A stretch of 32,000 bases of DNA from Geotalea daltonii FRC-32 (GCF_000022265.1 NC_011979.1:3870001-3902000); one strand, 5' to 3'. Positions 4,218 to 32,000 are shown, counted from the first letter of the stretch. The notes: generated by a model not told the origin, from the letters alone. Made by a program: numbers and translations.

Positions 4218-4221
4218 ACTC

Positions 4222-14841: not shown

Positions 14842-15030
14842 TCAGTATCAACGAAGCACAACAGAACATTCTTGTACATGTATCGCCTCTGGAAACCGAA
14901 AAGGTGTTTCAGGGGCTGAACAGAGTAACTCCGGAAGACCATATAGCACCCTGGGACATCCCCACTACCGACAACTCCGCCATGGATGGCTTTGCATTCT
15001 CTCACGCAACCATTGAGGAGGGAGCACATG
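14838..15030 (+). pseudogene. moeA: moeA (molybdopterin molybdenumtransferase) 5' remnant, about 64 codons
   Basis: AGGAGG at 14823-14828 precedes a TTG at 14838 that overlaps the upstream stop (TTGA). The translation ISINEAQQNILVHVSPLETEKVFQGLNRVTPEDHIAPWDIPTTDNSAMDGFAFS matches the MoeA N-terminus, including the DNSAMDG(Y/F)A motif. MoeA-like sequence stops near 15030, whereas full-length MoeA is about 400 aa. Confidence 0.65.
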
Positions 15031-15075
15031 AAGCATTTGCTTTAAGCTGCTTCTGTACCGCTGTTCATCGGCTTT

Positions 15076-17045: not shown

Positions 17046-17281
17046 CTGCCATGAATGGGGAATCATATGAGGAAGTTTTTAGTTCCATCGGAAAGTATTT
17101 TTACTGTGCCTGCTCATGCAGGTACAGTATATATCCACTGCACTGGCGAAAGAGACAACCTTCGATGTTTTCTTTCAAGATTTGGCTATGAAACCCGCGC
17201 TGATATGTAGATAGATAGCAAAAAGCACTTTTTTCATGTCTCATTTTTTGAGAAGTTTATGCCCCCTTGGCCGGGGCGGGT

Positions 17282-17845
17282 TCAGTAGCCCCTGGTGCAT
17301 TGGGCGACGATATCCGCTAACTCTGCATCGGACAGATCGTCGTCAAGGCGGATCGCACCATTGGCATCCCGGCGGAGTTCGGTTATTCCCGGATAATGCT
17401 GCTCCAGGTATTTCAACTCCTGGCTTTGCTGTCTGACCGCCCGCAGCAGTCTCCTGTTCTCCGATTCCAGATCGTATTTTTCGATGGCAGAGCGAATAGC
17501 CAGCTTCAACTGGACCTCGTCCCATGGCTTGACGAAAAAGCGGTAGATCTCGCCATTGTTGACCGCCTTCATGGTGGCATCGACACTGGCATGGCCGGTG
17601 AGCATGATGCGCACCGTCTCCGGATAACGCTCTTTTACTACAGACAAGAAAGTGGCTCCGTCCATGCCGGGCATCCTTTCATCGGAAATGACTACTTTGT
17701 ATGATTTTCCTTCCATCAGCTGCAAAGCCGCTTCCCCGCTATTCACCCCTGTAGTTTCGTAGCTTTCATCAATCAGGGCACGTTGAAGTGCTGATATAAC
17801 ATAGGCTTCATCATCCACCAGCATAACATTAGTATGGTGATTCAT
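17282..17845 (-). CDS. Response regulator: REC domain + about 60-aa uncharacterised tail
   Basis: The ATG at 17845 has GGAGG 5 nt upstream; the ORF-track start at 17863 is less likely. REC motifs: VMLVDDE, VISDERMPGMDG, RIMLTGHAS, FFVKPW. Confidence 0.85.
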   Translation of the reverse strand: MNHHTNVMLVDDEAYVISALQRALIDESYETTGVNSGEAALQLMEGKSYKVVISDERMPGMDGATFLSVVKERYPETVRIMLTGHASVDATMKAVNNGEIYRFFVKPWDEVQLKLAIRSAIEKYDLESENRRLLRAVRQQSQELKYLEQHYPGITELRRDANGAIRLDDDLSDAELADIVAQCTRGY

Positions 17846-17869
17846 ACACACCTCCCAAACCATATGGAA

Positions 17870-20290
17870 TTATAAGACGTCTTTAGGACTGCCGCAATTC
17901 GGACAGTTTAACCAACTAGTCTCTAATGAAATTTTGCATGTCTTGCAAAAATTCTGACGGAATGAACCACAATAGGGACAAAACAGAAACTTGGCATCGA
18001 AGTTTCTATGGCAATTATCGCAGCATCTTTCATAAACGAGCTGTGGCCCTATTACGCGGAGCAACTCTTCAAGAGTAGTAAGTCCCAGACGGACCTTTTC
18101 CAGACCGTCTTCAACCAATGTCCGCATCCCGGCAGCACGAGCCATCTCGAATAACTCCGTTTCGCGATACCCTGTGCTTATCATATGCCTGAAATCTTCA
18201 TTCATGACGAAGACTTCATAGATGCCCGTCCGTGACATATATCCAGTCTTATTGCACTGATCACACCCCATACCTTTACTGACACCGTCAGCAAATAAAT
18301 CAGGTGGTACTCGAAGAAGGTCAAGTATGTCGGGATCTGGTGACACTGTCGTTTTGCAATGAGGACAGATTTGTCTAACCAGACGCTGTGCAATTATCCC
18401 TTCCAGTGCAGAACCAATAATGTATGGTTTAACGCCCATATCGATCAGGCGGGTAATGGACGCTACAGAACTATTAGTGTGGAGGGTGGAGAGCACCATG
18501 TGTCCGGTGAGGGATGCCTTGAATGCCACGTCTGCCGTCTCGTGGTCTCGGATCTCTCCCACCAGGATCACATCCGGATCCTGGCGCAAGGTGGCACGCA
18601 GGACCTGGGCAAAAGTCAGCCCTATCTTATCCCGCACCGCCACCTGGTTTGCATCCTCAAGGAAATATTCCACCGGTTCTTCGATAGTTTCAAAGTTTTT
18701 GCTGCTCTCAAGCATGGCGGCAAGAATCGAATAAAGCATTGTTGTTTTGCCGCTACCAGTTGGACCGGTTGTAACAATGACACCTTGTGGCTTCCTTACG
18801 ATCATGGAGATTTTTTTCAGGTCATCTTGAAGTACACCGAGCTCATCGAGGCTCCTGATTGCAGAGCTCTTATCCAGAATCCTCATCACGATCTTCTCAC
18901 CATTTAGTGTCGGTAGTGATGAAACACGCATGTCGACAATGCGAGTGCCGGCTTTAACTGTTATACGCCCGTCCTGTGGCTTGCGGCGTTCGGATATATC
19001 CATTTTGGCAAGAATTTTAAGCCGAGAAATGATTGCAGCATGAAGATCAGCAGGTATCTTGATTTTGCTGTGAAGGAGTCCGTCTATTCTGAACCGAATC
19101 AAGGTATACTTTGTTTTAGCTTCCACATGAATATCACTTGCCCTGAAGCGGATAGCTTCCGAAATGACGGCATTGACTATACGGATAACCGGCGGAACCT
19201 CAGACGAGCCTACCAGTTCTTGAATACTCACATCTTTTTCATCTTCTTCTATTACAATGTCAATTTCATCAAGTGGCTCTATATCTATACATTCATCAAT
19301 GTCATCAATATTATTTTCACCGTAAATTCTCTTCAAAAGTGCAACAATTTCTGTGCTAGCACTCAACAAAGCTGTTACCTTCAACCCTGTCATTGTAGCA
19401 ATGTTGTCTATTTTATAGATATCCGATGGATCCGCCATTGCCATAGTCAGCTGACGGCCATCCATTTTAATGGGAATTATCCGATTTCTTTCACAAAGAT
19501 CCCGGGGCAGGAACCTCGCTGCAGTCTGGTTAACTTCATACTCGCGCAAATCCACATACTCAATATTGAGGTTTTCCTGCAGAGCCTTTATTATTTTAGC
19601 CTCACTGGTATATCTCAATCTGACTATTGCTTCACTGAGAAATTCTCCCTTTTCCATATTTTCTAGTGCATTTTCAAGCTCTTCCTGTTTAATAACTCCA
19701 CTTCTGACCAAAATGCTTCCCATCATACCGTGGTTTTCATCAAAGAGGCTGCTATAGTTCTTCAGTTTGAGCTGTTGAGTACGAGCTAAATCTTTTAGCC
19801 TTTTGTTCTCCTGAATTAAAGTGTACTGCTGGAGAGCTAAGCTTACCGTCAGACGCAGATCTTCATCATTCCAGGGTTTGGTAATAAATTTGTATACAGC
19901 TCCATCTTTTACAGCACCCATTATGGAATTGACATCCGCATGACCTGTCAACATGATGCGTATTGTCTGAGGCGAAAGTTCCTTGATAGCTTTCAGAAGT
20001 TCTGCACCTGTCATACCTGGCATACGATGATCCGACACAACCAGATGAATCGGCTCGGCGTCAAACATGGATAGGGCTTTTTCCCCATTCGATGCAGTAA
20101 GAATGTTGTAGTTTTCTTCCATGAAAATACGCCGCATTGCAGACAACACACCATCTTCGTCATCCACAAAAAGAATGGTAAATTTTTCTACACCTCCAGG
20201 TTGGCCGGAAGAAACACTTACATCTCCCATGGGCTCATTGATTCCATCGGTATTAGTAGTATTGCGGAAAAGGTTGGAATACTTAGCCAT
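17870..20290 (-). CDS. REC-fused GspE/PilB-family (T2SS-E/T4P) ATPase with MshEN-like N-domain and C-terminal double zinc ribbon
   Basis: 806 aa. REC: ILFVDDE, VVSDHRMPGMTG, RIMLTGHAD, FITKPW. T2SSE_N-like: MGSILVRSGVIKQEELENAL. ATPase core: Walker A GPTGSGKT, Walker B DPDVILVGEIRD, His box TGHMVLSTLHTN, and tetracysteine CPHC ... CDQC. An extra tail carries four CxxC pairs (CDNC, CPYC, CKTC, CPNC) at nt 17873-18040. Confidence 0.9.
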   Translation of the reverse strand: MAKYSNLFRNTTNTDGINEPMGDVSVSSGQPGGVEKFTILFVDDEDGVLSAMRRIFMEENYNILTASNGEKALSMFDAEPIHLVVSDHRMPGMTGAELLKAIKELSPQTIRIMLTGHADVNSIMGAVKDGAVYKFITKPWNDEDLRLTVSLALQQYTLIQENKRLKDLARTQQLKLKNYSSLFDENHGMMGSILVRSGVIKQEELENALENMEKGEFLSEAIVRLRYTSEAKIIKALQENLNIEYVDLREYEVNQTAARFLPRDLCERNRIIPIKMDGRQLTMAMADPSDIYKIDNIATMTGLKVTALLSASTEIVALLKRIYGENNIDDIDECIDIEPLDEIDIVIEEDEKDVSIQELVGSSEVPPVIRIVNAVISEAIRFRASDIHVEAKTKYTLIRFRIDGLLHSKIKIPADLHAAIISRLKILAKMDISERRKPQDGRITVKAGTRIVDMRVSSLPTLNGEKIVMRILDKSSAIRSLDELGVLQDDLKKISMIVRKPQGVIVTTGPTGSGKTTMLYSILAAMLESSKNFETIEEPVEYFLEDANQVAVRDKIGLTFAQVLRATLRQDPDVILVGEIRDHETADVAFKASLTGHMVLSTLHTNSSVASITRLIDMGVKPYIIGSALEGIIAQRLVRQICPHCKTTVSPDPDILDLLRVPPDLFADGVSKGMGCDQCNKTGYMSRTGIYEVFVMNEDFRHMISTGYRETELFEMARAAGMRTLVEDGLEKVRLGLTTLEELLRVIGPQLVYERCCDNCHRNFDAKFLFCPYCGSFRQNFCKTCKISLETSWLNCPNCGSPKDVL

Positions 20291-20293
20291 TAT

Positions 20294-21586
20294 TTATTCC
20301 TTATTCAGAGGAATTGTAATAATAAAATCAGCCCCACCATCAGCTGCATCTGCAACTGATACAGTTCCCCCAAGTTTCAAAACGCTGTCATACACCACGG
20401 CCAGCCCCATACCTTTACCTGCACCCACTTCACGAGTAGTAAAGAAAGGTTCAAACACCCGGCCGCGATGCTCTGGAAGAATTCCTGGTCCATTATCAGC
20501 AATACTGATTCTGATTCGTTTCCCATCCCAGGCTGTAGCCAGAGTTACACGGAGGCCATCCCCACGGGATTGGATTGCATTTTGTATAATATTGAGGAAA
20601 ACTTGACTAAGTACTGCCGCTTGAGCCTTGATAACAGGCAATGGTTGAAGATCACGTACAATCTCCACTTTGTTTTTTAATTGATGACAAAGAACACTTA
20701 ATGTCAGTTCAATTTCTCTATTCACATCAATGTCAATAAGCCCAACTTCATCGACATGAGAAAAACCTTTTAAATCAGCCACTATGTTCATAACACGTTC
20801 TGCGCCGGTCAACGTTTGGGATAGGAGATCACCAACATCTGTACACACCATGTCTATTTTTAATTCTTGCCATTTTTGTTCTGTCTGTTCGACTAAAGTG
20901 GAGGTTGTCGAACCAATCTTGTTCAGATCTCTGCAGAAGAATAACATTGCACTGAGGCGATTGACATATTTTTGCAAGGTGTGAAGATTGCTTATGATGA
21001 AGCCAAGGGGATTGTTTATCTCGTGAGCTATTCCTGCTGCCAGTTGCCCTATGGCTGCCATTTTTTCTTGCTGAAGTAGATGCGAATGAGCTTTTTTCAA
21101 CTCGAATGTTCTCTCATTCACTCGTTTTTCAAGGCTCTCTGCCAAATCTCGATACCGTGCTTCTGATTGACTTAGCTGTTGATTTATTTCAACAAGTTGC
21201 TCAAAGGATGTATTGACTACAGTAGTATGAATTTCTGTTGTAAGAATTCTTTTAAGGTTATTTGAAATCACAGTATTAAGCGCAACAGCCAATAGTTTAC
21301 CAACTGCAAAAAGCAAAGGCTTTGAATCCTGATCTCCAAAAACATTTATAGTTCCTACCGGTTCCCCTTCCAATTTCAGGGGGAAAATAACTAAAGGTTC
21401 CGCCAGGAATGGACGCTGGGTGGCACCCCAAATCTCCATCCCGTCTGGGTCCAGTATGGTCACATTATCGGCACCTGCCTGTACGGCACCTTCAAGAAGA
21501 GGAATAACCTCAGTATCTATTAAAACGTCATGCAGGCGCTTCTCATCGCCGACTACATATGAAATTCCTTCCTGTGAAGGCAGCAT
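20294..21586 (-). CDS. Cytoplasmic sensor histidine kinase (small GAF-like or unknown N-domain + coiled coil + HisKA + HATPase_c)
   Basis: H-box: QQEKMAAIGQLAAGIAHEINNPLGF. N-box: FLNIIQNAIQ. G-boxes: DNGPGI and GAGKGMGLAV. The start is either the ATG at 21586 (AGGAG upstream) or the TTG at 21595 (TTGA overlap). No TM segment is evident. Confidence 0.85.
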   Translation of the reverse strand: MLPSQEGISYVVGDEKRLHDVLIDTEVIPLLEGAVQAGADNVTILDPDGMEIWGATQRPFLAEPLVIFPLKLEGEPVGTINVFGDQDSKPLLFAVGKLLAVALNTVISNNLKRILTTEIHTTVVNTSFEQLVEINQQLSQSEARYRDLAESLEKRVNERTFELKKAHSHLLQQEKMAAIGQLAAGIAHEINNPLGFIISNLHTLQKYVNRLSAMLFFCRDLNKIGSTTSTLVEQTEQKWQELKIDMVCTDVGDLLSQTLTGAERVMNIVADLKGFSHVDEVGLIDIDVNREIELTLSVLCHQLKNKVEIVRDLQPLPVIKAQAAVLSQVFLNIIQNAIQSRGDGLRVTLATAWDGKRIRISIADNGPGILPEHRGRVFEPFFTTREVGAGKGMGLAVVYDSVLKLGGTVSVADAADGGADFIITIPLNKE

Positions 21587-21591
21587 CTGTA

Positions 21592-22257
21592 TCAATCTCC
21601 TTCCTGCTCAGCAACATTGACCATGCGATTCACAAATGCTCTTTTGTCAAGACCATGGTCGGACGCGATTCTGTAGCGATCATCAATTCTGTCGTAAAGG
21701 CGTTCGACCAGCAGTGAAAATGTTTCTACTACTCCCAATCCTTTAATAGCTGCTGCCATAGTCACGGGAATTCCGGTAGGCTCCCAAGTATGAAGAATAT
21801 CCTCTTCTGCAACTATTGCCGATAAATCTCGCTTGTTAAATTGAATCACAAGCGGCACTGAATCAACATCCAACCCTACCAAAGCTAAATTGTTTTCCAA
21901 GCTTTCAAAGCTGGCAAGGTTGTTCGTGCTTTGCGAAAGCTGGGAATCAGCGATAAAAGCAACGCCATCAGCTCTCTGTAATACAGCCTTACGTGTGGCG
22001 TCATGTCTTACTTGGCCTGGAACTGTGTAAACTTTGACTTTTATTTTTAACCCGCTGGGTGCAACAATGAAAAAAGGCAGAAGATCAAAATAGATTGTTC
22101 TATCGTCAGTTGTATCCAAGACCATCAGATCTCCTCGACCTTCATGTTTTAACAATTCATGCAATTGAAGAAGATTGGTTGTTTTCCCAGACATGGCAGG
22201 GCCATAATAAACGAGTTTCAGAACCATGCGCCGCTCTTTTTCATTAAATTCAATCAT
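21592..22257 (-). CDS. MglA-family Ras-like small GTPase
   Basis: MIEFNEKERRMVLKLVYYGPAMSGKTTNL aligns residue-for-residue with the MglA N-terminus (P-loop GxxxxGKT). Also present are TDDRTIYFDLLP (intrinsic Arg-finger position), YTVPGQ (the MglA-type G3 with catalytic Gln), and NKRD (G4). An alternative start at 22320 (ATGA overlap) would add 21 residues. Confidence 0.8.
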   Translation of the reverse strand: MIEFNEKERRMVLKLVYYGPAMSGKTTNLLQLHELLKHEGRGDLMVLDTTDDRTIYFDLLPFFIVAPSGLKIKVKVYTVPGQVRHDATRKAVLQRADGVAFIADSQLSQSTNNLASFESLENNLALVGLDVDSVPLVIQFNKRDLSAIVAEEDILHTWEPTGIPVTMAAAIKGLGVVETFSLLVERLYDRIDDRYRIASDHGLDKRAFVNRMVNVAEQEGD

Positions 22258-22316
22258 GATGGGAATCCTGTTCCTTGAATCAAGAAGTTGAGTCTGTAGA
22301 TTACAAAAGTAAATAC

Positions 22317-23627
22317 TCATTGAGAAACGAAAACAAACACTCCCCCCTCGGGAGGATCTACACTGTAATATCGCTTCAGAGCGTGTATTTTAGCCTCATC
22401 CAATGTCGCCCCCTTGTTTAGAAGCAAAAGCCCCGTGCCGCTTATCACTTCTCTGGCCAGGACCATGCCTGTACATAAGTCTTTTGGTGAAATTTCTTGC
22501 ACAACCATCGAACGATCTGTAAGACCAATATAATAACTAGTGGATACTTCCTGAACTGTTGGCAGCAGCTCTGGATCAAAAAAGCTTTCTGCTTTCTCCT
22601 TTAGGCTTTTCATTATTGATTCGATTGAAACCGAAGCATCCATTCTTGAGATAGTCGTATCCACGAAATCTGCAATGGCGATTATACGTGCTCCAATCGG
22701 TATGTCCTTCCCGGATAGCCCATCTGGAAATCCTGTTCCATCATAGAGTTCATGATGGTGACGAATTATCTGGCCTGCTGAGCGTAAACCTTCGACCACA
22801 TCAACAACTGCCTGTCCCCGCACCGGATGCCGGGCATACTCTGCACGCTCCTCATCATCAAGCAACTCATACCGCATTCTTAGTATGCCTGGTTCTATAC
22901 CTATTTTCCCTATATCATGCAAAAGTGCAGCGACTCTTATAGTTTCGATTTCGTCTTCTGTTAACTGTAATTTGCGAGCGGACTCTTCGGCAACAGCGGA
23001 AACATTGTTAGAATGATTCTTTGCCAGTGAATCTAAAAGGCCGATAACGCTGGAAAAGGCAAGAATGGTATTCTGCCAGTTCCTGGTGGCAATCTCGCCA
23101 CTCAGGCGCAATTCCTCCATCTGCTGCCTGATCCGGGTCGTCTGTTCCATTACGCGGCTCTTCAGCCCGTTGTTCCACTCGTGCAGCTCGGCATTCTGCT
23201 GCTGTACCAGTGCGGAAAGGCGCTTGTTCTCCATGGTCATCCGGTAGCGCTGGACGCCTTCTGTCAGGGTCTGCACAAGCATGCCGTCATCCCACGGTTT
23301 GGTGATGTAGCAAGAAGCCCCACCCTTGTTGATTGCGTCCATGGTGGCATTGATGTCGGCATAACCGGTCAATACCATGCGTATCGCTTCCGGAGCCAGG
23401 CTCTTTGCCTGTTGCAGGAATTCCGCTCCCGTCATTCCCGGCATTCGCTGGTCAGAAAGGATCAACGCCACATCCGGGTGCGCCTGCAGAACGCTGAGCC
23501 CTTCGCTTCCCGAGCCGGCAGTCAGTACATTGATGTCGTTCTCCTCCATCAGCAGGCGGACAATGGCCCGGAGGATGTTTTCTTCGTCGTCGACGACAAG
23601 TATGGTGCTTGTGGTTTGGGCTACCAT
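22317..23627 (-). CDS. Response regulator with HD-GYP (c-di-GMP phosphodiesterase-type) output and about 130-aa C-terminal extension
   Basis: REC: ILVVDDE, ILSDQRMPGMTG, RMVLTGYAD, YITKPW. After a coiled coil, the HD-GYP domain has LLHDIGKIG and HHHELYDGTGFPDGL, where GFP replaces GYP. The extra C-terminal region ends in DLCTGMVLAREVISGTGLLLLNKGATLDEAKIHALKRY. Confidence 0.9.
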   Translation of the reverse strand: MVAQTTSTILVVDDEENILRAIVRLLMEENDINVLTAGSGSEGLSVLQAHPDVALILSDQRMPGMTGAEFLQQAKSLAPEAIRMVLTGYADINATMDAINKGGASCYITKPWDDGMLVQTLTEGVQRYRMTMENKRLSALVQQQNAELHEWNNGLKSRVMEQTTRIRQQMEELRLSGEIATRNWQNTILAFSSVIGLLDSLAKNHSNNVSAVAEESARKLQLTEDEIETIRVAALLHDIGKIGIEPGILRMRYELLDDEERAEYARHPVRGQAVVDVVEGLRSAGQIIRHHHELYDGTGFPDGLSGKDIPIGARIIAIADFVDTTISRMDASVSIESIMKSLKEKAESFFDPELLPTVQEVSTSYYIGLTDRSMVVQEISPKDLCTGMVLAREVISGTGLLLLNKGATLDEAKIHALKRYYSVDPPEGGVFVFVSQ

Positions 23628-23633
23628 TGTTCT

Positions 23634-24596
23634 TTATCCTTCTGAGCCTGTTTTTTCCGTGTCCAATGTTTGGAAAAACATGTCTACCAGCCGTCCTTCC
23701 AGGTGGTTTCCTCGCATATCTCCCATGAGCTTGTGCGCCTTTGCGAAACTCATGGCAGGCTTATAAGGTCGATCCGTAGTCAGGGCGTCGAAAACGTCGG
23801 CAACGGCCACTATCCGTGCCTCCAGAGGGATCGAGACCCCTTTCAGACCGAAGGGATACCCGGTTCCATCGAAGCGCTCATGGTGATGGCGGATAATGTT
23901 GATCAAAGTAGGAGATAAGTTGGCCTGCTGGGCCACGTTGGCTCCCCACTCGGGATGCTTCCTGACAACGATCATTTCCTGCTCCGAAAGCATGCAGGTA
24001 GAATTGAGGATTGTCTCCGGCACGCCGATCTTGCCGCAGTCGTGCAGCCAGCTGCCGTAACGAATCTCCCGGGATGTGGTCGAGGGAAGCTTCAAAAGCT
24101 CGCATATCCTTAAAGCGTGGTCGGCAACGCGGTTACAGTGCCCGCGGGTGTAATGGTCTTTCAGCTCGATGGTCTCGGCCAGAGAATGGAGAACACCTTC
24201 ATCATGTTGTCTGAGGGCGTCCCAGATACGGAAACGGGCAACCCCTTCGCTGACCGCCTGGTATAGCTCCTCATTTCGCCAGGGCTTGACGATGAATCTG
24301 AAGACCTCGCCACTGTTGATCGCCTGCAGCGCCGTATCCAGATCGGCATGGGCTGTCAGCAGACATTTGACGGTCTCCGGTGATTCCTCCTTGATCCGTG
24401 TCAACAGTTCGATTCCTTTCATTTCAGGCATCATATTGTCCGAAACGATAACGGCAAACTTTTTACTGCGACACAGTTCCAGTGCCTCTATTGGGCTACG
24501 GGTGAAAACGGTTTCCAGGCCGCTTTCCGAGAAAACCCGCTGCAGGGCGTTGAGCACATGTTGTTCATCATCAACAAAAAGGATAGGTTCGCTCAT
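23634..24596 (-). CDS. Response regulator with HD-GYP output (RpfG-like)
   Basis: REC: ILFVDDE, IVSDNMMPEMKG, FIVKPW. HD-GYP: GHCNRVADHA, WLHDCGKIGVP, HHHERFDGTGYPFGLKG. Confidence 0.9.
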   Translation of the reverse strand: MSEPILFVDDEQHVLNALQRVFSESGLETVFTRSPIEALELCRSKKFAVIVSDNMMPEMKGIELLTRIKEESPETVKCLLTAHADLDTALQAINSGEVFRFIVKPWRNEELYQAVSEGVARFRIWDALRQHDEGVLHSLAETIELKDHYTRGHCNRVADHALRICELLKLPSTTSREIRYGSWLHDCGKIGVPETILNSTCMLSEQEMIVVRKHPEWGANVAQQANLSPTLINIIRHHHERFDGTGYPFGLKGVSIPLEARIVAVADVFDALTTDRPYKPAMSFAKAHKLMGDMRGNHLEGRLVDMFFQTLDTEKTGSEG

Positions 24597-25396
24597 ACTG
24601 AAGACTCTCCTGTCAGGACTATGACGATGGCAGGTGTTGCACCCTGATCCAATGCGGTCGCATCAGCCTGCAACGTCCTGCCGTCGGCGGCAATGCCGGT
24701 CCAGCTTTTCTCTCCGGCCAAAACCCGGCCGATAAACCCGCAGATATCAGCAGGGAGTACATGGGCCATGGGCCGACTCAGGCATTCGTCCCTATCCCTC
24801 CCCAGCAGCAGGGCGGCAGCAGTGTTCATTTGCATGACCGTATCGGCGAGGACCGACAGCACGCCGAAGGGAAGGCTGTCCAATATTATGAAAGGATCAA
24901 GGCCGTGGGGGCCACCCGCCACCAAAACTTGCTGTTGATCAACGGCACCGCTCAAAAGCTCCAGAGCCAGGGACTTGACATGGAGTTCTTCGGACAACTT
25001 TGCGTTTTCCCGATGAAGGGCGAACATCTCCACTGCCTTGGCAATGGTCATCTTCAGCTCATCTTCGTTCCAGGGCTTGGGGATGAACCGGTAGATCTCC
25101 CCCTCGTTGATCGCCGCAACGACAGCAGCGGTATCCGCATAACCGGAGAGGACGATGCGGATTGTTTCCGGATGGAGGCTGCACGCCTTCTTGAGGAATT
25201 CCACCCCGTTCATGCCGGGCATGCGGTAGTCCGAGATGATCACATGGAAATTTTCGCTACTGGAGAGCTTTTCCAATCCCTCCTCCCCGGAAGAGGCGGT
25301 GATGATCTCGTAGTCCTCATCGATAAACATTCTTTCAATTGCGCGGAGCACGTTTCGTTCGTCATCGACGCAAAGAATTCTCACGGTTTCATCCAT
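24593..25396 (-). CDS. Response regulator: REC + PAS-like C-terminal domain
   Basis: REC: ILCVDDE, IISDYRMPGMNG, RIVLSGYAD, FIPKPW. The C-terminal part (ILDSLPFGVLSVLADTVMQMNTAAALLLGRDRDECL) is PAS-like. An ATGA overlap joins it to the downstream gene. Confidence 0.8.
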   Translation of the reverse strand: MDETVRILCVDDERNVLRAIERMFIDEDYEIITASSGEEGLEKLSSSENFHVIISDYRMPGMNGVEFLKKACSLHPETIRIVLSGYADTAAVVAAINEGEIYRFIPKPWNEDELKMTIAKAVEMFALHRENAKLSEELHVKSLALELLSGAVDQQQVLVAGGPHGLDPFIILDSLPFGVLSVLADTVMQMNTAAALLLGRDRDECLSRPMAHVLPADICGFIGRVLAGEKSWTGIAADGRTLQADATALDQGATPAIVIVLTGESSV

Positions 25397-25399
25397 TCG

Positions 25400-28300
25400 C
25401 TACTCCACAGGAATTCGGATAGTGAAGGTCGTTCCCTGTCCCGGTTCACTGGTAACATCTATAGTCCCTTTATGTTTGTTGATGATGTCGAAACTGATGG
25501 AAAGACCTAGTCCAGTTCCTTTTCCCACTTCCTTGGTTGTGAAGAATGGATCGAAAATCTTGCCGATCACCTCCGGCGGAATCCCGCAACCGGTGTCGCT
25601 GATGGCAATGCAGGCGGTCTTGTCCTCGCACCAGGTCGCAATCCTGATTTCCCCACGCTCCTTGATGGCATGGGCGGCATTGATCAGCAGATTGAGGAAT
25701 ACCTGGTTCAGCTGCTGGGGAAAGCATTTGACCTGGGGCAGTTCGCCGTAATCCCGGACCAGCGTCACCTTGTATTTCAACTCATTCCAGGCGACCATGA
25801 TAGTACTTTCCAGGCATTCGTGAAGGTCCATATACTTGCTTTCCGCATTGTCGATCCGGGAAAAGGATTTCAGGTTCTGGACGATATGTTTGACCCGCTC
25901 GGCCCCCTCTGTCGACTCGGACAACAGGCTCCGAGCATCATTGAGTATGTAGTCCAGCTTGCATCTGGCGCTCAGTTCGGCGATCTCCGTCCGGACCTCG
26001 GCCGGGGCGGTGTCGTTAATGGCTGCGCTCTGGGCGGCAATAATTCCCTGAAGCCGCTCCAGGTACTTGCCCATTGTCCCCAGATTGCTTGAAATGAAAC
26101 CGATGGGGTTGTTGATCTCATGGGCAACACCCGCCGCAAGCTGGCCGAGGGAAGCCATCTTTTCATTCTGGAGCAATTGTTTGTGGGTGGTTTTCAGATC
26201 CTCGTAAGTCCGAAACAACTCCTGGGAAACCAGCTTGATCTGGGTCAGGTCATGGAGAGTAATGACTGCCCCGTCAGCATCCCCGTAAGGGTAGCTGCTC
26301 AGATCGAACCAGCGGTTGGTTGGCTCATGATGGAACTCGATCTTCCTGCTGTCCCGGTCGAAGGTAAAACCGAGGGAGGCGCAAAGATCGGGCCATTTGC
26401 TGGAAATGAGGCCGGTATAGGAAATGCCGCAGAATTCCATGAACGACTTGTTGCAGCGTCTGACATGATCCTGGCCATCTACGAGTATGATCATGTCGTC
26501 GATGCAGTCCATTGTCTTTTCCCACTCCCGCTTGCCCTGCTCCACCTGCCTGAACAGGTTGCGGAGTTCTTCATGTTTCACCACCAGCTCAGCCTGCTGT
26601 TTTCTCAGAGCCCGCTCGTTATTTCTCAGTTCGGTAATGTCCTCCTCGGCAATAACGAGATTAGTTATTGTCCCGTCCGGGTCCGTCACCGGCATCACGG
26701 TGACAGTCTGCCAAAAGGCGGTTCCATCTTTCTTTCGGCTCATGAGTTGCACCTGCCAGGCATCTCCTGCAGTTAGGGTCTGCCACACTTGATGGTACAG
26801 CTGCGGCGATTGCTGCTCCGGATCGAGAACCGGCGGTTTCCGCCCCAGTATCTCCTCTTTGCTGTATCCGCTGATTTCGCAGAATTTCCGGTTCACATAC
26901 TGGATCGAGCCTTCCAAATCGGTAATGATGATTGAGCTGGCGCTTTGATTGATGGCCTCGGAAAAGAGCCTGAGGCTGTCCTCCGCTGTCTTACGCTCGG
27001 TGATGTCGTAAATGGTTTCTACGACGGCCACCTTTTTGCCGTCACTGAAGATGGGGGCGGCATCTAAGATCAGATAGCGTTTTTCTCCGTTGGGCATTTC
27101 AAACCACTGTTCGCAGCGAATGGATTTCTTGACAAAGGGATCTTTGAAACAGTGCTGGTAACAGCGCTCGATGTCCCCATTGAGACCATCCAGAACCAGG
27201 TCGCTCAGGGTCGGTCGTTGATCCCCATAAAAAGGCTGCCATTGCAGGCTGGTCCCCAGGACATCGGCGGCGGCCTTTCCCGTCAGTTCCACCATGGCAC
27301 GGTTCCAGGCAATGACCTTATGATCGGCATCGATGACGAAAACCGGCGTAAGAATGCTATCGACGATACTTTCGCTGAAGACTCTCTGGTCATTAAGTCT
27401 CTGCTCCAGGATGATCCGGTGGGTGACGTCCCTGAAACTGGCGCGGATTGCTATGCGGCTGCCGTCCGATGCGACAACGGTATGACAGACATGGTTGAAC
27501 CACCTGGTCTCTCCGTTTTTGGTGATGATCCTGATGTCGAAGCTTCTACCGCATCCTTCTTCGTCCGGCAGTTCACAGTGATGGAGCCATGCGTCCAGGT
27601 CCTCGGGATGAACGATTTTTTCGAGAAAGCGGGGATTACCGTGGAACTCCTCTTCCGTGTAGCCGGTCAGCTTGAGGCAGTTGCCAGACACATATCGTAC
27701 GGACTTGTCCGGATTGAACAGGATTGCCAGTTCCGAAGTGAACTCGGCGAGAATCTTGTAAAGCTCCCGGTTCTCGTGGAGCAATTCCTGCTTTTCGTCC
27801 ATCTGGAGAATCATCTCGTTGAAGGCTGCAGCCAGGGAACCCAACTCGTCGCGGGTATCGATATGAATAAACCTTCCTTCTCCCCGTTTTGCCGACAGTT
27901 TCTTCACATGGGCAGTCAGCCTTACTACGGGGCCGACGATTTTTCCCGTCACGAAATAGGCAATAACCAGGGAGGCAACAAAAGCCATGCAGAACATGGC
28001 AGCCATGAAGTAGTTGATCCGACTTATGGGTGCATAGGCCTCGGAAAGAGGATAATGAATGGCTAGTATCCAGTCGGCATTGACCAGGGGTTTGAAGGAT
28101 GAAATCCCTTTGGCGCCCATACTGTTCGTATTCTCCATGCTGCCGGTAAAGTTGCTTTCGATGGCAGAATCGAGCCCAGGGTTTGCGCCCGACAGAATAG
28201 TCTCGGTAATGCGTCGCTGGTTTGGATGCATGATCAGCATGCGCTTCCTGTTGACCAGGTAGATGAAACCCTTATTGCCGATCCGTAGTTTGTTCAGATC

Positions 28301-28852
28301 GGCAAGGTAGCTGTCATGCAGCAGATCGTTGGAACCGGCAAGAACACCGATGGCCCTGCCATCATGAACAATAGGGACACTCAGGGTGACCATAGGATGG
28401 TGGGGGGACGCGGCCTCTATATAGGGGTTGGAAAGAAATGTTTTGCCGTGCTTGAGGGGAAAGGAGACATAGTCCTCGTTCAGCAATGACTTGGTCGGGG
28501 CGGCGCCCTCAGAACCTGTTTTCGCAACGACACGTCCCTTAGTATCGATGATGCACAACCCACCGTTGAAGTGCTGTTTGTCTTTCCATAAGGAAATGAT
28601 CTTACGGTTAGTTTCAGTATCTCGAAGGTCCTTGTCGGCAAGATCCAACGCCAGATGCTCCAGCATATGCCGTGAATGGGCAATCTGCTCGTCGAGCGGC
28701 CCCGCGACCAAGGACAACAAAGCGGACTGCTGCTTTGCAACCTCATCCTTGAGTACCTCGATCACATAGTGATGACCAATGACACTGATCGCTCCCATTA
28801 AAAGCGAAACAAAGATGGAAATGATTGTCGCGGTTTTTGTTTTGATGCTCAT
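25400..28852 (-). CDS. Membrane sensor histidine kinase: TM-dCache-like periplasmic domain-TM-HAMP-4xPAS-HisKA-HATPase_c
   Basis: Roughly 1150-1162 aa. The start is either the ATG at 28852 (MSIKTKTATIISIFV) or the GTG at 28888. The periplasmic region lies between TM segments at about aa 20-40 and 290-315. Four PAS-like blocks follow. H-box: [26 protein letters not shown]-boxes: DTGCGI and GKGTGLGLS. Confidence 0.9.
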   Translation of the reverse strand: MSIKTKTATIISIFVSLLMGAISVIGHHYVIEVLKDEVAKQQSALLSLVAGPLDEQIAHSRHMLEHLALDLADKDLRDTETNRKIISLWKDKQHFNGGLCIIDTKGRVVAKTGSEGAAPTKSLLNEDYVSFPLKHGKTFLSNPYIEAASPHHPMVTLSVPIVHDGRAIGVLAGSNDLLHDSYLADLNKLRIGNKGFIYLVNRKRMLIMHPNQRRITETILSGANPGLDSAIESNFTGSMENTNSMGAKGISSFKPLVNADWILAIHYPLSEAYAPISRINYFMAAMFCMAFVASLVIAYFVTGKIVGPVVRLTAHVKKLSAKRGEGRFIHIDTRDELGSLAAAFNEMILQMDEKQELLHENRELYKILAEFTSELAILFNPDKSVRYVSGNCLKLTGYTEEEFHGNPRFLEKIVHPEDLDAWLHHCELPDEEGCGRSFDIRIITKNGETRWFNHVCHTVVASDGSRIAIRASFRDVTHRIILEQRLNDQRVFSESIVDSILTPVFVIDADHKVIAWNRAMVELTGKAAADVLGTSLQWQPFYGDQRPTLSDLVLDGLNGDIERCYQHCFKDPFVKKSIRCEQWFEMPNGEKRYLILDAAPIFSDGKKVAVVETIYDITERKTAEDSLRLFSEAINQSASSIIITDLEGSIQYVNRKFCEISGYSKEEILGRKPPVLDPEQQSPQLYHQVWQTLTAGDAWQVQLMSRKKDGTAFWQTVTVMPVTDPDGTITNLVIAEEDITELRNNERALRKQQAELVVKHEELRNLFRQVEQGKREWEKTMDCIDDMIILVDGQDHVRRCNKSFMEFCGISYTGLISSKWPDLCASLGFTFDRDSRKIEFHHEPTNRWFDLSSYPYGDADGAVITLHDLTQIKLVSQELFRTYEDLKTTHKQLLQNEKMASLGQLAAGVAHEINNPIGFISSNLGTMGKYLERLQGIIAAQSAAINDTAPAEVRTEIAELSARCKLDYILNDARSLLSESTEGAERVKHIVQNLKSFSRIDNAESKYMDLHECLESTIMVAWNELKYKVTLVRDYGELPQVKCFPQQLNQVFLNLLINAAHAIKERGEIRIATWCEDKTACIAISDTGCGIPPEVIGKIFDPFFTTKEVGKGTGLGLSISFDIINKHKGTIDVTSEPGQGTTFTIRIPVE

Positions 28853-29056
28853 GCTGATGGTCTTCACCTGAGTTCCCCGGACATGCACCCGATTAAATCA
28901 TTCAGGAGCTGCAACTGAAAGGTGTTCCGTACTTGAAACATCTATCGGTTCGGGGACCGGAAACTTAAATCCGCAAATTTATCAGCTGATGCTCTAAAGT
29001 TGCCGGCATAAATGCCGAAAGGGATCAGTAGACGGGCAAATCAACGACGGAGAGAG

Positions 29057-29458
29057 ATGATGAAAATTCTTCTGGTGGATGACAGCTTTATCACGAGGCA
29101 GTGGATCAAGGACACATTGTCTCCACTGGGCGAATGTGACATAGCCGCCAATGGTGAGGAAGCGATATTGGCTTATAAACTGGCCTTCGAGGCTCAGAAA
29201 CCATACGACTTGATCTGCATGGATCTGTTGATGCCGGTCATGGACGGCAACCAGGCCCTACGGGCAATCAGGGCCGTAGAGCAGGCATCGAGAATTTCAG
29301 CTGTTCATCAGGTCAAGGTCATCATGATTACCGCTTGTGATGATCCCAAGACTCGCCTGGATCCCACTTTCCTGAATGGGTCCACTGCTTTTTTGGTCAA
29401 ACCGTTCACCGCTGAGGACCTTCTGCAAGAGATCATAAATCTTGGCCTGTATCAGTGA
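29057..29458 (+). CDS. Single-domain CheY-like response regulator
   Basis: The sequence starts MMKILLVDDSFITRQ, with the phospho-acceptor region LICMDLLMPVMDG, then VIMITA and FLVKPF. GGAGAG lies upstream of the ATGs at 29057/29060. The receiver subtype differs from the five operon REC domains: there is no KPW motif. Confidence 0.85.
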   Translation: MMKILLVDDSFITRQWIKDTLSPLGECDIAANGEEAILAYKLAFEAQKPYDLICMDLLMPVMDGNQALRAIRAVEQASRISAVHQVKVIMITACDDPKTRLDPTFLNGSTAFLVKPFTAEDLLQEIINLGLYQ

Positions 29459-31413
29459 GTTAAAGTTTCCCTCTGCACTCCCTCTTCTTCACCATGGTGG
29501 TCCTTGCCCAGCACAGGCAAGGTAATGGTGAATCTGGTTCCTCTTCCCAGCTCGGACTCCAGGGTAATACCACCATTGTGCTTTTTGATGAGGTCATAGG
29601 AAATACTGAGCCCCAGCCCGGTCCCTTTCCCTACCTCTTTTGTGGTAAAGAAGGGCTCGAAGATCCGGTGCCGAATTTCTTCAGGAATTCCGACTCCGGT
29701 GTCAGCTATTGAAACGGAGATCTGGTCACCGTTATGGGAAGTGGCCACGGTGATCTCCCCTTGGGTATCGATTGCCTGGGCAGCATTGACAAGAAGGTTC
29801 AGGAACACCTGGTTGAGCTGCTGAAGGTTGCACTTCACTTTCGGCAGGACGCCGAATTCCTTCTTTACGGTGGCCTTGTATTTAATCTCGTTCCACACGA
29901 TATTAATGGTGCGGTCAAGACATTCATTGATATCAGCGAATAAATATTCCTTTGCATCAGCACGGGAAAATGTCTTGAGGTCAGTCACAATATCCCTGAC
30001 CCGTTCGGTGCCCTCCAATGATTCCTTGATCAACTGCTCCGCGTCTTTCCTGATACGGTCTATCTTAAGAGTTTTCCGCTTCAGTTCCAGTTCTTCCAGG
30101 TGCTCCGGAGCAACGTCGCTCAATTTTTCTTCCTGCAGGTCAATAAACTCGTTCATTCTGCTCAGATACTTGTTCAGCGTGGTGAGATTGCTTGAAACGA
30201 ACCCTATGGGATTGTTGATTTCATGGGCGACTCCGGCGGCCAGTTGTCCGATGGAAGCCATTTTTTCATTTTGCAGCATATGGAGTTGAGCCGTTTTAAG
30301 TTCTTCGCTCGAAGCTTTCAGCTCATGAGTCCGCTCCTCTACAATCTGTTCCAGGGACTGCTTCGAAACCCTCGTATTCGAAAGGTTGTCCAGCATTTTG
30401 TTGAAGGTCTTCCCCAGGGCCTCCACCTCTTCGTCGGACGAAATCTCAACCCTCTGAGACAGGTCGTCCTTTTCCATAATCGACTGCATCGTTGCTTCCA
30501 GGTCTTTTATCGGTCGCACAAACCTCCTGGTACGGAAGAAAACGACACAGGAGACAGCGGTGGCAGTAAGAAGCCCTATCAGCAGCATGTGCCAGAGCAA
30601 TTTTTCTACCGGGGCCAGAATGTTGCTGGAAGGAACCGATAGAACCAGTCTCCAGCCGAAGCCCTCGAATCCTTCGATACCCTGCAAGGGAAACACGGCA
30701 AAAAGTTTATCGTGCTCGGAAAAAACCCGCGCCTCTCTTTTCGGCAGCTTCCCTCCTGCCGCTTTGGCAAGAGTAGACGGATCAAGCTCCCCAAGAAGCA
30801 GATGTCCGGAGGAGCCGATGATAGCGGTCTTGAACTCTTCCGTAGTTTGCATGACGGCCGAGATCAAGGAAACATCGAATTTGGCAACCAGAACACCTTC
30901 GGGCAGCGACTGGTAAAAAATCGGGAACGCGAAAAGCACCTTGTGATGCTTCCCGTCATCGCTGATCTCGGCATGGGGACTGCCCCCCATCACCTTTTGC
31001 CGCCACCGTACATTCTCGAAGACATCATTGCTCGTACCAGCTCCGTTTTTAGCGATGATCCTCCCCTTATAGTCGAGAAGAAAAATATCAGCCTTGTCAC
31101 CCTCTTTGCCCGGCAGGGACAGCTTGCGCATGAAGGGAGCCAGATATGTCTCTCTCCCCAGTGTGTCGATGACGCTATTGATCATGAATGGATTGGCTGC
31201 AAGGTCCTGCGTTGCGCGCCACTTGATAGTCATATCCTCGTTTACCGCACGTGAAAAGTCGGCGGCCATCTGAGAAAGATGAACGCGAATTTCCCCTTCA
31301 AGCGCCTTCATGGCTGTCCGCGAAACGCTGAACATCATGATGCTGAGCGCCGTCAGGTCAAGAATAATAAAAAAGATAAGTATCTTGCCTTGAAGGCTCT
31401 TCAAATAGCCCAT
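29452..31413 (-). CDS. Membrane sensor histidine kinase (TM-Cache-like periplasmic domain-TM-HAMP-HisKA-HATPase_c)
   Basis: 653 aa. H-box: [26 protein letters not shown]-box: [12 protein letters not shown]-boxes: DTGVGI and GKGTGLGLS. Its 3' end overlaps the convergent CheY-like gene by 7 nt. Confidence 0.9.
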
Positions 31414-31424: not shown

Positions 31425-32000
31425 CTATCGGCGTGGCATGATCGTCCCGTCCCGATCGTAAATCGCCAGGTGGTAATCCGAGGCGTTCAGCCCCTCATGC
31501 CGCTGAGGGGTAAACGGAGGCCGGTATGTTTTGACAAGGCCCGAATAGGAGTTGATCTTTTCCATGGCATTGCGCACTTTTGCCCGATCGATGGTTCCCG
31601 CCTTGTCAATGGCCAGCGCCAGAATATGTACCAGGTCATAAGCGTGGGCAGTACCGACGGGGGCCATAATTTCCCGCTCGCTTCCGGCCTTGAACATGGT
31701 CTTGTAGCGATTGATCACCTCTCGCGCCTTTTTCCCTCTTGCGTTCATAAATGAATAGGTCTGAAGAAACTGCAATTTAACACCTTTCAGTCCATCCCCT
31801 GCACTCCCGCGGAAATTTCCCCCTGTTATTCCCCAGTGAGAGATTATTGGAAGTCTCACCTTTTCCGGTCTCAGCGCCATGTGCCTGACGATTGCACCAC
31901 CCTCCGGAGCATTGGCCACCATGATCACCGCATCCGCCCCTGCTTTTTCGAAAGCAATCAATTGAGTCGTCATGTCCGTGTCCCCCAGATAGAACCACTG
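31425..32000 (-). CDS. Periplasmic substrate-binding protein, type-1 PBP (Leu/Ile/Val-binding / ABC-type), N-terminus outside the window
   Basis: The frame is open to 32000 (QWFYLGDTDMTTQLIAFEKAGADAVIMVA ...). Typical LivK-like C-terminal lobe sequence is present (GTAHAYDLVHILALAIDKAGT). The stop lies 11 nt upstream of the kinase start, so the two are probably co-transcribed. Confidence 0.8.
   Translation of the reverse strand, partial: QWFYLGDTDMTTQLIAFEKAGADAVIMVANAPEGGAIVRHMALRPEKVRLPIISHWGITGGNFRGSAGDGLKGVKLQFLQTYSFMNARGKKAREVINRYKTMFKAGSEREIMAPVGTAHAYDLVHILALAIDKAGTIDRAKVRNAMEKINSYSGLVKTYRPPFTPQRHEGLNASDYHLAIYDRDGTIMPRR

Follow-up and report, generated by a model that had tools for sequence, protein, structure and literature searches.

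What could bring together, in a single bacterial operon, a small GTPase of the MglA type, histidine kinases, a series of receiver (REC) proteins and an ATPase of the kind that extends pili? The question is raised by a stretch of 32,000 nucleotides (nt) of Geotalea daltonii FRC-32 (GCF_000022265.1, NC_011979.1:3870001-3902000), referred to below as the window, with positions counted from its first letter, in which eight co-directional open reading frames (ORFs) occupy the minus strand from 17282 to 28888 (g1 to g8, Table 1); all of them were recovered where a preliminary description, made from the sequence alone, had drawn them. MglA-family GTPases are the paradigm for bacterial cell polarity; to our knowledge, their partners have been established for the most part only in Myxococcus, Thermus and Bdellovibrio, and the regulation of PilB-type extension ATPases is known to us through cyclic di-GMP (c-di-GMP) and adaptor proteins, not through a fused receiver. 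The answer suggested here is that the invariant unit is, on the evidence of gene order, the MglA-type GTPase (g5) with a dedicated histidine kinase (g6, HK2 in what follows) and a REC-PilB-type ATPase (g7), and that the accessories of this cassette are, as far as their domains can be predicted, paralogous receiver proteins of the RpfG/NosR class (REC-HD-GYP, REC-PAS and REC-only) and variable sensor kinases of Cache, PAS or GAF type.

The evidence that carries this answer is recurrence. The survey comprised 83 non-redundant loci, 68 of them informative, that is, with at least 4.6 kb of downstream flank, and 73 of them usable for counting the upstream HD-GYP gene; they belong to Desulfuromonadota, Nitrospirota/Thermodesulfovibrionales, Desulfobacterota and Bacteriovoracaceae (Bdellovibrionota), and, among the Gamma- and Betaproteobacteria, to Marinobacter, Pseudomonas, Halomonadaceae, Janthinobacterium, Noviherbaspirillum and Gallionella. 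A kinase stands immediately after the GTPase in 67 of the 68 informative loci, and in 65 of the 68 the following gene on that strand is the REC-MshEN-T2SSE ATPase, at a distance of +1.5 to +5.5 kb from the GTPase, the count rising to 67 if any position in the cluster is accepted; the exceptions are one locus with the ATPase upstream in the same cluster (L032), one with an extra kinase inserted (L033) and one that truly lacks both genes (L036). The synteny of GTPase and REC-ATPase in other genomes, on which the preliminary description had made its proposal depend, therefore extends over several phyla. De novo clustering of all locus ORFs returned four conserved families, namely the kinases, the REC/REC-HD-GYP proteins, the REC-ATPase and the GTPase, and no fifth conserved partner (MglB, PilC, pilin) emerged from this unbiased clustering of the 83 loci. 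With the same gene order kept in dozens of distantly related genomes, the arrangement goes far beyond chance, and these genes would form a functional unit.

The junction between HK2 and the ATPase measures -8 to +3 nt in all seven gene-called examples. In Geoalkalibacter, a Nitrospirota metagenome-assembled genome (MAG), Geomonas and Geobacter sulfurreducens, the order runs from one or more sensor kinases through REC(-PAS), one or two REC-HD-GYP proteins, GTPase, kinase and REC-MshEN-T2SSE to, usually, a REC, no final REC being called after the ATPase of the Nitrospirota MAG; in Pseudomonas indica and Marinobacter it is REC-HD-GYP, REC, GTPase, kinase, REC-ATPase and a giant PAS/GAF kinase. 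The complete cassette is found in G. sulfurreducens YM18 (L087, AP017912.1 2253476-2274798), with two Cache kinases, a REC, two REC-HD-GYP proteins, a GTPase of 229 amino acids (aa), the kinase, the REC-ATPase and a REC, and Geobacter metallireducens also carries orthologues. Some of these clusters have neighbours worth recording: the YM18 cassette lies a few kb from an mreB gene; that of the Nitrospirota MAG (L005) adjoins flagellin, FlaG, FliD and FliS, followed by an HDOD-HD protein (3755-5245 and neighbours); and a family of ~285 aa (cluster C4) occurs near the cassette in 15 loci, its checked member being that same HDOD-HD protein. In the accessible part of a 2014 census of prokaryotic small GTPases, G. 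sulfurreducens PCA is credited with GSU0098 and GSU1930 alone, and the paralogue of the cassette appears to have been missed.

In the window itself the genes are closely packed, the junctions being +3 nt from g1 to g2, -4 nt from g2 to g3 (an ATGA overlap at 24593-24596), +6 nt from g3 to g4, +59 nt from g4 to g5 with the GTPase start at 22257, -4 nt (TTG start 21595) or +5 nt (ATG start 21586) from g5 to g6, +3 nt from g6 to g7, and +6 nt (start 17863) or +24 nt (start 17845) from g7 to g8, so that the tight spacing, the overlap and the gap before the GTPase first described all stand. For the GTPase the short start, 22257, is judged to be correct, since all homologues share the conserved N-terminus "MIE[FY]"; that of HK2 is most likely the ATG at 21586, preferred to the TTG because a ribosome-binding site, GGAAGGAG, sits 10 nt upstream of it and because gene callers, independently, give a product of 430 aa. 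Promoter-like sites inside the operon number 18 (13.2 ± 3.9 expected from shuffled sequence) and terminator-like sites 14 (11.3 ± 3.3 expected); with matches at chance level, internal promoters and terminators were rejected, and Rfam gave no match over the whole window. The eight genes thus look like a single unit, as had been proposed, given their tight junctions and internal signals not above chance. One feature could tell otherwise: a weak GC-rich hairpin of 6 bp with a T-rich tract (TCCTCCCGAGGGGGGAGTGTTTGTTTT), running from 22356 to 22340 on the minus strand within the last codons of g4, immediately precedes the 59-nt gap, which is the operon's only sizeable gap and only candidate break. 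Hairpin and gap together could split the operon in this strain, or the hairpin could act, ahead of the GTPase, as an attenuator or a partial terminator.

Composition also bears on the unity of the core. The G+C content at third codon positions (GC3) drops from ~0.72 to ~0.37 near nt 600 of g4; the genes of the GTPase, HK2 and the ATPase are low throughout, and the value climbs back inside g8, so that a block at ~0.37 stands between flanks at ~0.65. The same block is found in the reference Geotalea toluenoxydans, whose genome is 96% identical to the window at the DNA level and whose GTPase and kinase are 96-99% identical to those described here; neither the sister Geotalea sp. SG265, with a uniform GC3 of 0.63-0.71, nor the clusters of G. 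sulfurreducens, Geomonas, Geoalkalibacter, the Nitrospirota MAG and P. indica show it. Within the block the proteins are still highly identical to those of SG265 (91% for the ATPase), and the pattern suggests either an allele replacement from a close relative of lower GC or a local shift in codon use. Because the block is shared by the HD-GYP half of g4, the GTPase, HK2 and the ATPase, these would have behaved as one unit in this lineage.

What kind of GTPase is at the center of this unit? Pfam gives just a weak, sub-threshold match to Arf; the solved structures are more telling, with phmmer E-values of 1.8e-41 to the MglA entries 6hjh, 6h17 and 5ymx and of 1.3e-39 to 3t12_A, and an identity of 43% to Myxococcus xanthus MglA over 175 ungapped residues. 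Its G3 motif is YTVPGQ (T[VI]PGQ in 82 of the 83 loci, DxxGQ in none of the 83), its switch I carries an intrinsic arginine finger, D52-R53-T54 (DRT in 83/83), and its G4 is the canonical NKRD (NKxD in 83/83); P-loop, DRT, TVPGQ and NKRD are each kept in 82-83 of the 83 loci. The subfamily, of ~218 aa and ~70% identical across Geobacteraceae, is typified by a conserved C-terminal tail (HGLxKxxF) that MglA does not have, and its peptide patterns ([FY]FDLLPFF and YGPA[LM]SGKT) retrieve at least 504 relatives in species-representative genomes. The initial domain assignments, the MglA-type and the PilB/GspE-type calls included, are in this way upheld by Pfam, NCBIfam and matches to solved structures.

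No Roadblock/MglB protein lies next to the GTPase among the scanned ORFs of the window (the major ones, of at least 100 aa, compared with Pfam; the remaining listed ORFs, mostly overlapping these, were left aside), and no MglB-sized family is conserved in the 83 loci; an MglB gene adjoining mglA is typical of Group 1, though not universal. In the 2014 census, Geobacter proteins of 223-225 aa (Gmet_3475, GM21_2366) are classed as MglA Group 1 orphans, the gene neighbourhoods of Group 1 are said to vary widely, and the same Geobacter genomes also hold a canonical MglA of 195 aa adjoining MglB. The lack of MglB noted at the outset is therefore true of the locus, but not of the genomes, where a canonical MglA-MglB pair is encoded elsewhere.

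The ATPase combines a receiver with MshEN, T2SSE and zinc-ribbon domains. In g7, Pfam finds T2SSE (PF00437) at 3.3e-129, over positions 6-370 of 370, with REC at 6.7e-25, MshEN at 3.4e-20 and a weak DZR; the Walker A box GPTGSGKT, the two CxxC at 642/676, DPDVILVGEIRD and TGHMVLSTLHTN can be read directly from the sequence, the CxxC motifs number six, and Walker A and B, the Asp and His boxes and the tetracysteine zinc motif of a full-length T2SSE protein are all in place. The best solved relatives are PilF/PilB, at 1e-138 to 1e-127 and with similarity from the N1 domain to the C-terminus; with E-values of 1e-138 for PilF, 2e-135 for G. metallireducens PilB, 1e-106 for GspE and 1e-32 for PilT, g7 is by similarity nearer to the extension ATPases of type IV pili than to either GspE or PilT. 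It falls under the NCBIfam equivalog cutoffs of both PilB (TIGR02538, 564 against 675.65 bits) and GspE (TIGR02533, 541 against 630.25), and for this reason is placed in a separate paralogous subfamily. The C-terminal zinc ribbon is present in 23 of the 26 informative loci of the delta/Nitrospirota clade, compared with 9 of 42 loci of the more distant clade. The scanned window ORFs include no PilC/GspF, pilin or secretin, nor is any conserved in the 83 loci. The "MshE" of G. sulfurreducens was considered as a g7 ortholog and rejected, being GSU0435, which adjoins pilT3 at a different locus. A 2024 review of PilB regulation contains no mention of a PilB with a fused receiver, and reports that Geobacter seem to be without identifiable extension regulators (PMC11656802).

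How such an ATPase could be controlled is indicated by its MshEN domain. The c-di-GMP motif of MshEN is a tandem of 24 residues, RLGxx(L/V/I)(L/V/I)xxG(L/V/I)(L/V/I)xxxxLxxxLxxQ, or a relaxed form of it (PMC5013675), and neither the strict nor the relaxed pattern is found in g7. The Arg of position 1 and the Gln of position 24 are missing from both motifs in 68 of 68 aligned orthologs; motif II of g7 additionally lacks both Gly, which the other orthologs retain variably, and the four-helix-bundle scaffold is kept. Since the motif is degenerate, canonical c-di-GMP sensing by g7 is not predicted; it appears to have been lost, the fused receiver being the obvious candidate for a replacement input in place of MshEN. 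The default model of c-di-GMP gating through MshEN was rejected on the same grounds, and the branched relay first imagined, in which removal of c-di-GMP feeds the ATPase, is left with no sequence backing.

Between the GTPase and the ATPase stands HK2, whose H-box reads HEINNPLGF. The ~110 residues before its signalling helix belong to no Pfam family, Robl_LC7 included (E <= 10), GAF_2 being marginal at E = 0.16. An AlphaFold2 model built from 56 orthologs gives a small alpha/beta domain (predicted local distance difference test, pLDDT, 91; predicted TM-score, pTM, 0.84). The Foldseek comparison with the PDB was rerun with this domain trimmed, as the long helix of the 172-residue model had blurred the normalisation; the top match is then the Thermus MglB of an MglA-MglB complex (3t12_B; E = 0.012, prob 0.99, TMq 0.55), and around 30 of the top 50 are MglB, MglC, Roadblock, Rag or Ragulator chains, many of the MglB chains at TMq 0.58-0.60. 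With hhalign, the match to MglB spans 24 in-register columns across alpha1-beta1-beta2, the reversed control giving P = 0.12. A hidden Markov model (HMM) of the domain matches no protein but the kinase encoded just after the GTPase, and this in delta/Nitrospirota loci alone, and an exhaustive phmmer search of 1.84 billion representatives returned HK2 orthologs, their fragments and repeat-driven matches alone, with no stand-alone MglB-like relative; judging from these searches, the domain is private to this kinase family.

The N-terminal domain of HK2 is the best candidate for a local partner of the GTPase. HK2 could then carry a fused, highly diverged, GTPase-binding domain of Roadblock/MglB type, which would make of the operon a "G-protein-gated two-component system"; we present this as a lead and not as a finding, possible but on the unlikely side. 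If it were so, kinase activity would depend directly on the nucleotide bound by the GTPase, or the N-terminal domain would be the GTPase-activating protein (GAP) of the GTPase, and the substrate of the kinase would be the receiver of the PilB-type motor ATPase. Several results weigh against a Roadblock/MglB origin: (i) no Foldseek match reaches E <= 1e-3 and no TM exceeds 0.60, so that the similarity is not significant; (ii) folds of GAF-like and haem-binding type (HbpS, DUF336, DosS-GAF) come up among the Foldseek matches with similar scores; (iii) the model lacks the Roadblock alpha2 helix; (iv) hhalign against the M. xanthus and Thermus MglB is weak (Prob 19%, P = 1.2e-3); (v) and finally, the kinases of the gamma/beta clade are not detected by the HMM of the domain.

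The remaining components suggest what the core is connected to. All five receivers of the operon (g2, g3, g4, g7, g8) keep the acidic pair, the phospho-acceptor Asp, the Thr/Ser and the Lys (DD/D/T/K), with Pfam REC E-values of 1e-19 to 1e-25; they share the signature "SDxRMPGMxG...KPW", are 32-42% identical to each other, and all reach ~185 bits over the initial ~145 positions of the NosR model, far above other receiver families, the divergent REC at 29012-29458 being just 22-29% identical to them. On the side of the kinases, g1, HK2 and a further kinase upstream (29452-31413, whose core is 56% identical to the core of g1) have a near-identical H-box/alpha1, HEINNP(I/L)GF..SNL.T..KY. Since the receivers share a signature and the kinases an H-box/alpha1, several kinases may feed one receiver class, and what had been described as the input of one environmental sensor looks rather like the convergence of at least three paralogous kinases. 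In g1 Pfam recognizes a dCache-HAMP, three robust PAS domains with some partial ones, and HisKA-HATPase; its kinase core scores 351 bits on NF038348 of NCBIfam, "T2SS_HK" (T2SS, type II secretion system), under the cutoff of 450, and its sensor part differs between genomes. Equivalents of g2 are found in three of the loci (L005, L006, L087).

The two HD-GYP proteins, read at first as two outputs that remove c-di-GMP, do not fare alike. In g3 the motifs GH..R, HDCGK, HHERFDGTGYP and ADVFDA are intact, with the metal ligands and the GYP all there, and its best solved relatives are V-cGAP3 (5z7c, a phosphodiesterase of cyclic GMP-AMP, cGAMP) and PmGH (4mcw, a c-di-GMP enzyme), both at ~1e-33. The nucleotide 3'3'-cGAMP is an established signal in Geobacter. 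The substrate of g3 could accordingly be c-di-GMP or 3'3'-cGAMP, and is not fixed to the former because the protein is equally close to both enzymes and because of that signal. For its part, g4 scores 472.5 bits on the NosR-family model NF053512 of NCBIfam (cutoff 400), over positions 1-422 of 422, and is partly degenerate: it has HDIGK and HHELYDGTGFP, with NH in place of GH..R and ADFVD in place of AD.FDA, and thirteen GFP-type proteins of the surveyed loci are without HD.GK. Two short regions accompany these proteins: the C-terminal ~80 aa of g4 (22317-22562), part of the NosR model and directly upstream of the GTPase in many loci, and the tail of g8 (17282-17488), which marks a REC that follows the ATPase in the delta-type loci and directly precedes the GTPase in those of Marinobacter and Pseudomonas. 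Neither belongs to a Pfam family, and at E <= 10 Pfam gave nothing for either of them, or for the ATPase linker and the GTPase tail.

With these elements a mechanism can be proposed, in which the operon is one instance of a widespread cassette where a multi-kinase phosphorelay, together with a kinase coupled to a GTPase, controls a REC-gated extension ATPase. In it, kinases with near-identical dimerisation and histidine phosphotransfer (DHp) specificity regions would phosphorylate one receiver class; the private alpha/beta domain would tie the activity of HK2 to the nucleotide state of the neighbouring GTPase, acting as a GTPase-binding sensor or a GAP-like partner; phosphorylation of the receiver on the ATPase would take over the role that c-di-GMP-MshEN binding plays in the MshE/PilB relatives, gating the activity of the hexamer or the way it is recruited by a type IV pilus or T2SS-like machine whose genes lie elsewhere in the genome; at the same time, the REC-HD-GYP proteins would lower cyclic dinucleotides (c-di-GMP or 3'3'-cGAMP), and the REC-only proteins would serve as phosphate sinks or adaptors. 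There is a precedent for the first of these steps in the soluble kinase NosK, which phosphorylates the REC-HD-GYP protein NosR (PMC12570481). It is the reading we favour, though tentatively, at somewhat less than an even chance. Its weak points are that an HD-GYP gene lies directly upstream of the GTPase in just 47 of 73 loci (26 of 30 in the closer clade), that proteins of the g4 type are often catalytically degenerate, and that in none of the loci does the ORF clustering associate a platform protein, pilin or secretin with the cluster. With respect to the mechanism first sketched, of a polarity GTPase, c-di-GMP removal and an ATPase gated by phosphorylation, the synteny favours the functional unit, but the loss of the MshEN motifs goes against a part of it.

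A first alternative is that the GTPase is a polarity factor in the style of Myxococcus, similar to MglA or SofG, which would position the REC-ATPase at the pole, with the MglB of the genome as its GAP and HK2 as a mere second kinase of the relay. The GTPase has every catalytic feature of Group 1 MglA, including the intrinsic Arg finger that MglB repositions, the census places an MglA-MglB pair in Geobacter genomes, the ATPase is of PilB type, and in M. xanthus MglA and SofG regulate PilB and PilT (PMC4316618); as in the MglA-MglB (SofG) module of Myxococcus and Thermus, a Group-1-type GTPase is genetically tied to a PilB-type extension ATPase. However, such a reading leaves unexplained why a kinase with a private N-terminal domain should be the invariant neighbour in 67 of 68 loci, and the conserved tail of the subfamily is missing from MglA; furthermore, the census has no entry for Marinobacter, one of the gamma/beta hosts in which an MglB would be needed. 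The cassette also differs from the module in having no adjacent MglB, RomR/RomX, SgmX or bactofilin genes, in its invariant partners, a histidine kinase and a receiver-fused ATPase, and in its presence in non-gliding lineages (Marinobacter, P. indica, Gallionella). We consider a polarity role of this kind, which is extrapolated from Myxococcus, unlikely.

It is also conceivable that the ATPase is not a motor at all, and that the REC-gated hexamer is a regulatory or scaffolding ATPase within a self-contained signalling device, with its output to cyclic-dinucleotide or other pathways. Such a role would agree with the total absence of linked PilC/GspF, pilin or secretin (0 of 83 loci), with the position of g7 under the equivalog cutoffs and with the extra double zinc ribbon in the delta/Nitrospirota clade, and it has a precedent in the PilB of M. 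xanthus, reported as a signalling protein for exopolysaccharide (PMC5544727). Yet all the catalytic and zinc motifs of an extension ATPase are retained, the similarity to PilB/PilF runs from N1 to the C-terminus (1e-127 to 1e-138), and several extension ATPases sharing one machine is a known arrangement (PMC11656802), for which reasons a non-motor hexamer seems distinctly unlikely. With the c-di-GMP-regulated ATPases MshE, PilB and PilF, g7 shares the N1 (MshEN)-N2-C-terminal domain architecture and the tetracysteine zinc site; it differs from them in the N-terminal receiver, in the C-terminal double zinc ribbon of one clade and in MshEN motifs deprived of the key Arg and Gln. Among reported proteins, the one that comes closest to the receiver-MshEN idea is Bd2402 of Bdellovibrio, an "MshEN-containing response regulator" that does bind c-di-GMP.

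A third possibility is a network for nitric oxide (NO) or another gas of the NosP/H-NOX type, in which g4 would be NosR, HK2 a NosK-like kinase under a separate haem sensor, and the GTPase and ATPase add-ons. It draws on the score of g4, above the NosR-family cutoff, on the membership of all cassette receivers in the REC class of the NosP-NosK-NosR and RpfC-RpfG systems, on the haem-binding folds (HbpS, DUF336, DosS-GAF) among the structural neighbours of the HK2 domain, and on the resemblance to NosK, likewise soluble, with an unassigned N-terminus of ~130 aa, and able to phosphorylate NosR (PMC12570481). But the NosR operon includes NosP, a FIST haem sensor of NO, as well as NosK (PMC12570481), whereas no FIST/NosP or H-NOX gene is found among the scanned window ORFs and de novo clustering of the loci yielded no extra family that could supply one; HK2 has as its invariant neighbour a GTPase and not a sensor protein; the cassette adds a GTPase and a REC-ATPase; and g3 is catalytically canonical, unlike the degenerate NosR of Burkholderia. 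A NosP-type system was for these absences set aside, and we regard a gas network as improbable. As for a fortuitous signalling island of adjacent, independent and uncoupled two-component genes, in favour of which one could cite the abundance of such genes in Geobacteraceae and the variation of sensor kinases and accessory receivers between loci, it is scarcely credible and effectively refuted by synteny, given that the order and strand of GTPase, kinase and ATPase are kept in 65-67 of 68 loci across phyla, that the junctions overlap or are near zero and that the core forms one compositional block, probably replaced together.

Two other known systems help to situate the kinase-GTPase-controlled ATPase that we propose. 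The actinobacterial conservon (CvnA kinase, CvnB Roadblock, CvnC, CvnD) likewise couples a kinase genetically to an MglA-family GTPase, and possibly to a Roadblock-like module (PMC4316618). Its GTPases, however, are of Group 2, without the G4 lysine and the Arg finger (PMC4316618), while that of the cassette is Group-1-like, with NKRD and the finger; the conservon has a separate Roadblock and a CvnC (DUF742), no response regulator and no ATPase, whereas the cassette has five receivers and a PilB-type ATPase, its putative Roadblock-like domain would be part of the kinase, and the clustering of the 83 loci yielded neither a separate Roadblock nor a CvnC family. In the PdeK-PdeR-FimX-PilZ system of Xanthomonas, a two-component system with a c-di-GMP phosphodiesterase as regulator governs PilB (PMC11656802), the link passing through the adaptors FimX and PilZ and the phosphodiesterase being of EAL type; in the cassette the receiver is fused straight to the ATPase, the phosphodiesterases are of HD-GYP type and a GTPase is included. 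No description of the cassette was found in the literature searched, open-access papers and bioRxiv, where absence is not proof, which agrees with the initial impression that no characterised system has this composition. In summary, the parts are all of known kinds, and their conserved combination appears to be undescribed.

Table 1. Coordinates of the operon genes and neighbouring features in the window.
Feature	Position	Strand	Basis and remarks
g1, membrane sensor kinase, dCache-HAMP-PAS(x3-4)-HisKA-HATPase	25400..28888	-	Pfam; start 28888 (GTG), 28867 or 28852
g2, REC with weak PAS-like C-terminal domain	24593..25396	-	Pfam REC 4.6e-22, PAS_4 1.3e-4
g3, REC-HD-GYP with canonical catalytic motifs	23634..24596	-	Pfam HD_5 2e-33
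g4, REC-HD-G(F)P with conserved C-terminal extension of ~80 aa, NosR-family response regulator	22317..23627	-	NCBIfam NF053512
g5, MglA-type (Group 1-like) small GTPase, 221 aa, subfamily C-terminal tail HGLxKxxF	21592..22257	-	PDB MglA matches
g6 (HK2), soluble histidine kinase: private N-terminal alpha/beta domain, long signalling helix, DHp and catalytic (CA) domains	20294..21586	-	Pfam HisKA, HATPase_c
HK2 N-terminal globular domain, residues 12-110, candidate Roadblock/MglB-like or mini-GAF	21257..21553	-	AlphaFold2 model, Foldseek
g7, REC, degenerate MshEN, PilB-type extension ATPase, C-terminal double zinc ribbon, 806 aa	17870..20290	-	Pfam
g8, REC with conserved tail of ~60 aa	17282..17863	-	Pfam REC 1.8e-21; start 17863 or 17845
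Divergent stand-alone REC of a different receiver subclass	29012..29458	+	Pfam REC 7.4e-15
Upstream dCache-HAMP histidine kinase, paralogue of g1	29452..31413	-	Pfam
Periplasmic-binding-protein gene preceding the upstream kinase	31425..31973	-	Pfam
Low-GC3 block	17750..23030	.	HD-GYP half of g4, g5, g6, g7 and first ~150 nt of g8

The surroundings of the operon add some details. The gene list of the preliminary description is sound for the eight operon genes, but omitted three neighbours, the divergent REC, the third Cache-HAMP kinase and the periplasmic-binding-protein gene. The divergent REC converges on the upstream kinase with an overlap of 7 nt, is also located upstream of the operon in L089 and L090, and is conserved in Geotalea sp. 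SG265, where the pair of kinase and binding protein is not. The usual partners of the GTPase and the ATPase had been reported missing locally, and indeed no GspF/PilC, pilin, secretin, PilMNO, PilT, MglB/Roadblock or GGDEF protein was found among the scanned major ORFs of the window, the others of which have housekeeping or unrelated functions. At ~15019-15053, ~1.8 kb are missing with respect to the reference G. toluenoxydans (L090 17015-18837), comprising the 5' part of an ArsP-type permease gene, an ArsR/HTH_5 regulator and the 3' part of moeA, and truncated MoeA_N and ArsP_1 ORFs remain (14514-15341, 15076-15867). The intergenic region between g8 and a DsbD-like gene (17046-17281) measures 236 nt, compared with ~48 nt in the reference strain; the extra ~185 nt have no second copy in the window or in the loci searched, save in the contigs that duplicate the window (L001, L002), and as RNA they fold at -71.8 kcal/mol (z = -3.8 against shuffles), with no match in Rfam.

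The interest of the cassette lies in that one MglA subfamily, with members in at least 504 species-representative genomes, is nearly always found joined to a kinase of its own and to a PilB paralogue with a fused receiver, which provides it with concrete partners; and as the genetically tractable G. sulfurreducens and G. metallireducens carry orthologs, the system can be tested in model organisms. It suggests a new way for bacteria to switch a pilus or secretion motor on and off. If the proposed mechanism were true, it would be a new input logic for such motors, in which phosphorylation and a G protein are combined, and the second example of kinase-GTPase coupling in bacteria after the actinobacterial conservon; were HK2, moreover, to carry a diverged Roadblock/MglB-like domain, the cassette would be a direct and widespread bridge, in Gram-negative bacteria, from Ras-like GTPase signalling to the control of a motor by phosphorelay, replacing c-di-GMP-MshEN control in this lineage of ATPases. 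In Geobacter, it could bear on the control of the pili or endopili in extracellular electron transfer.

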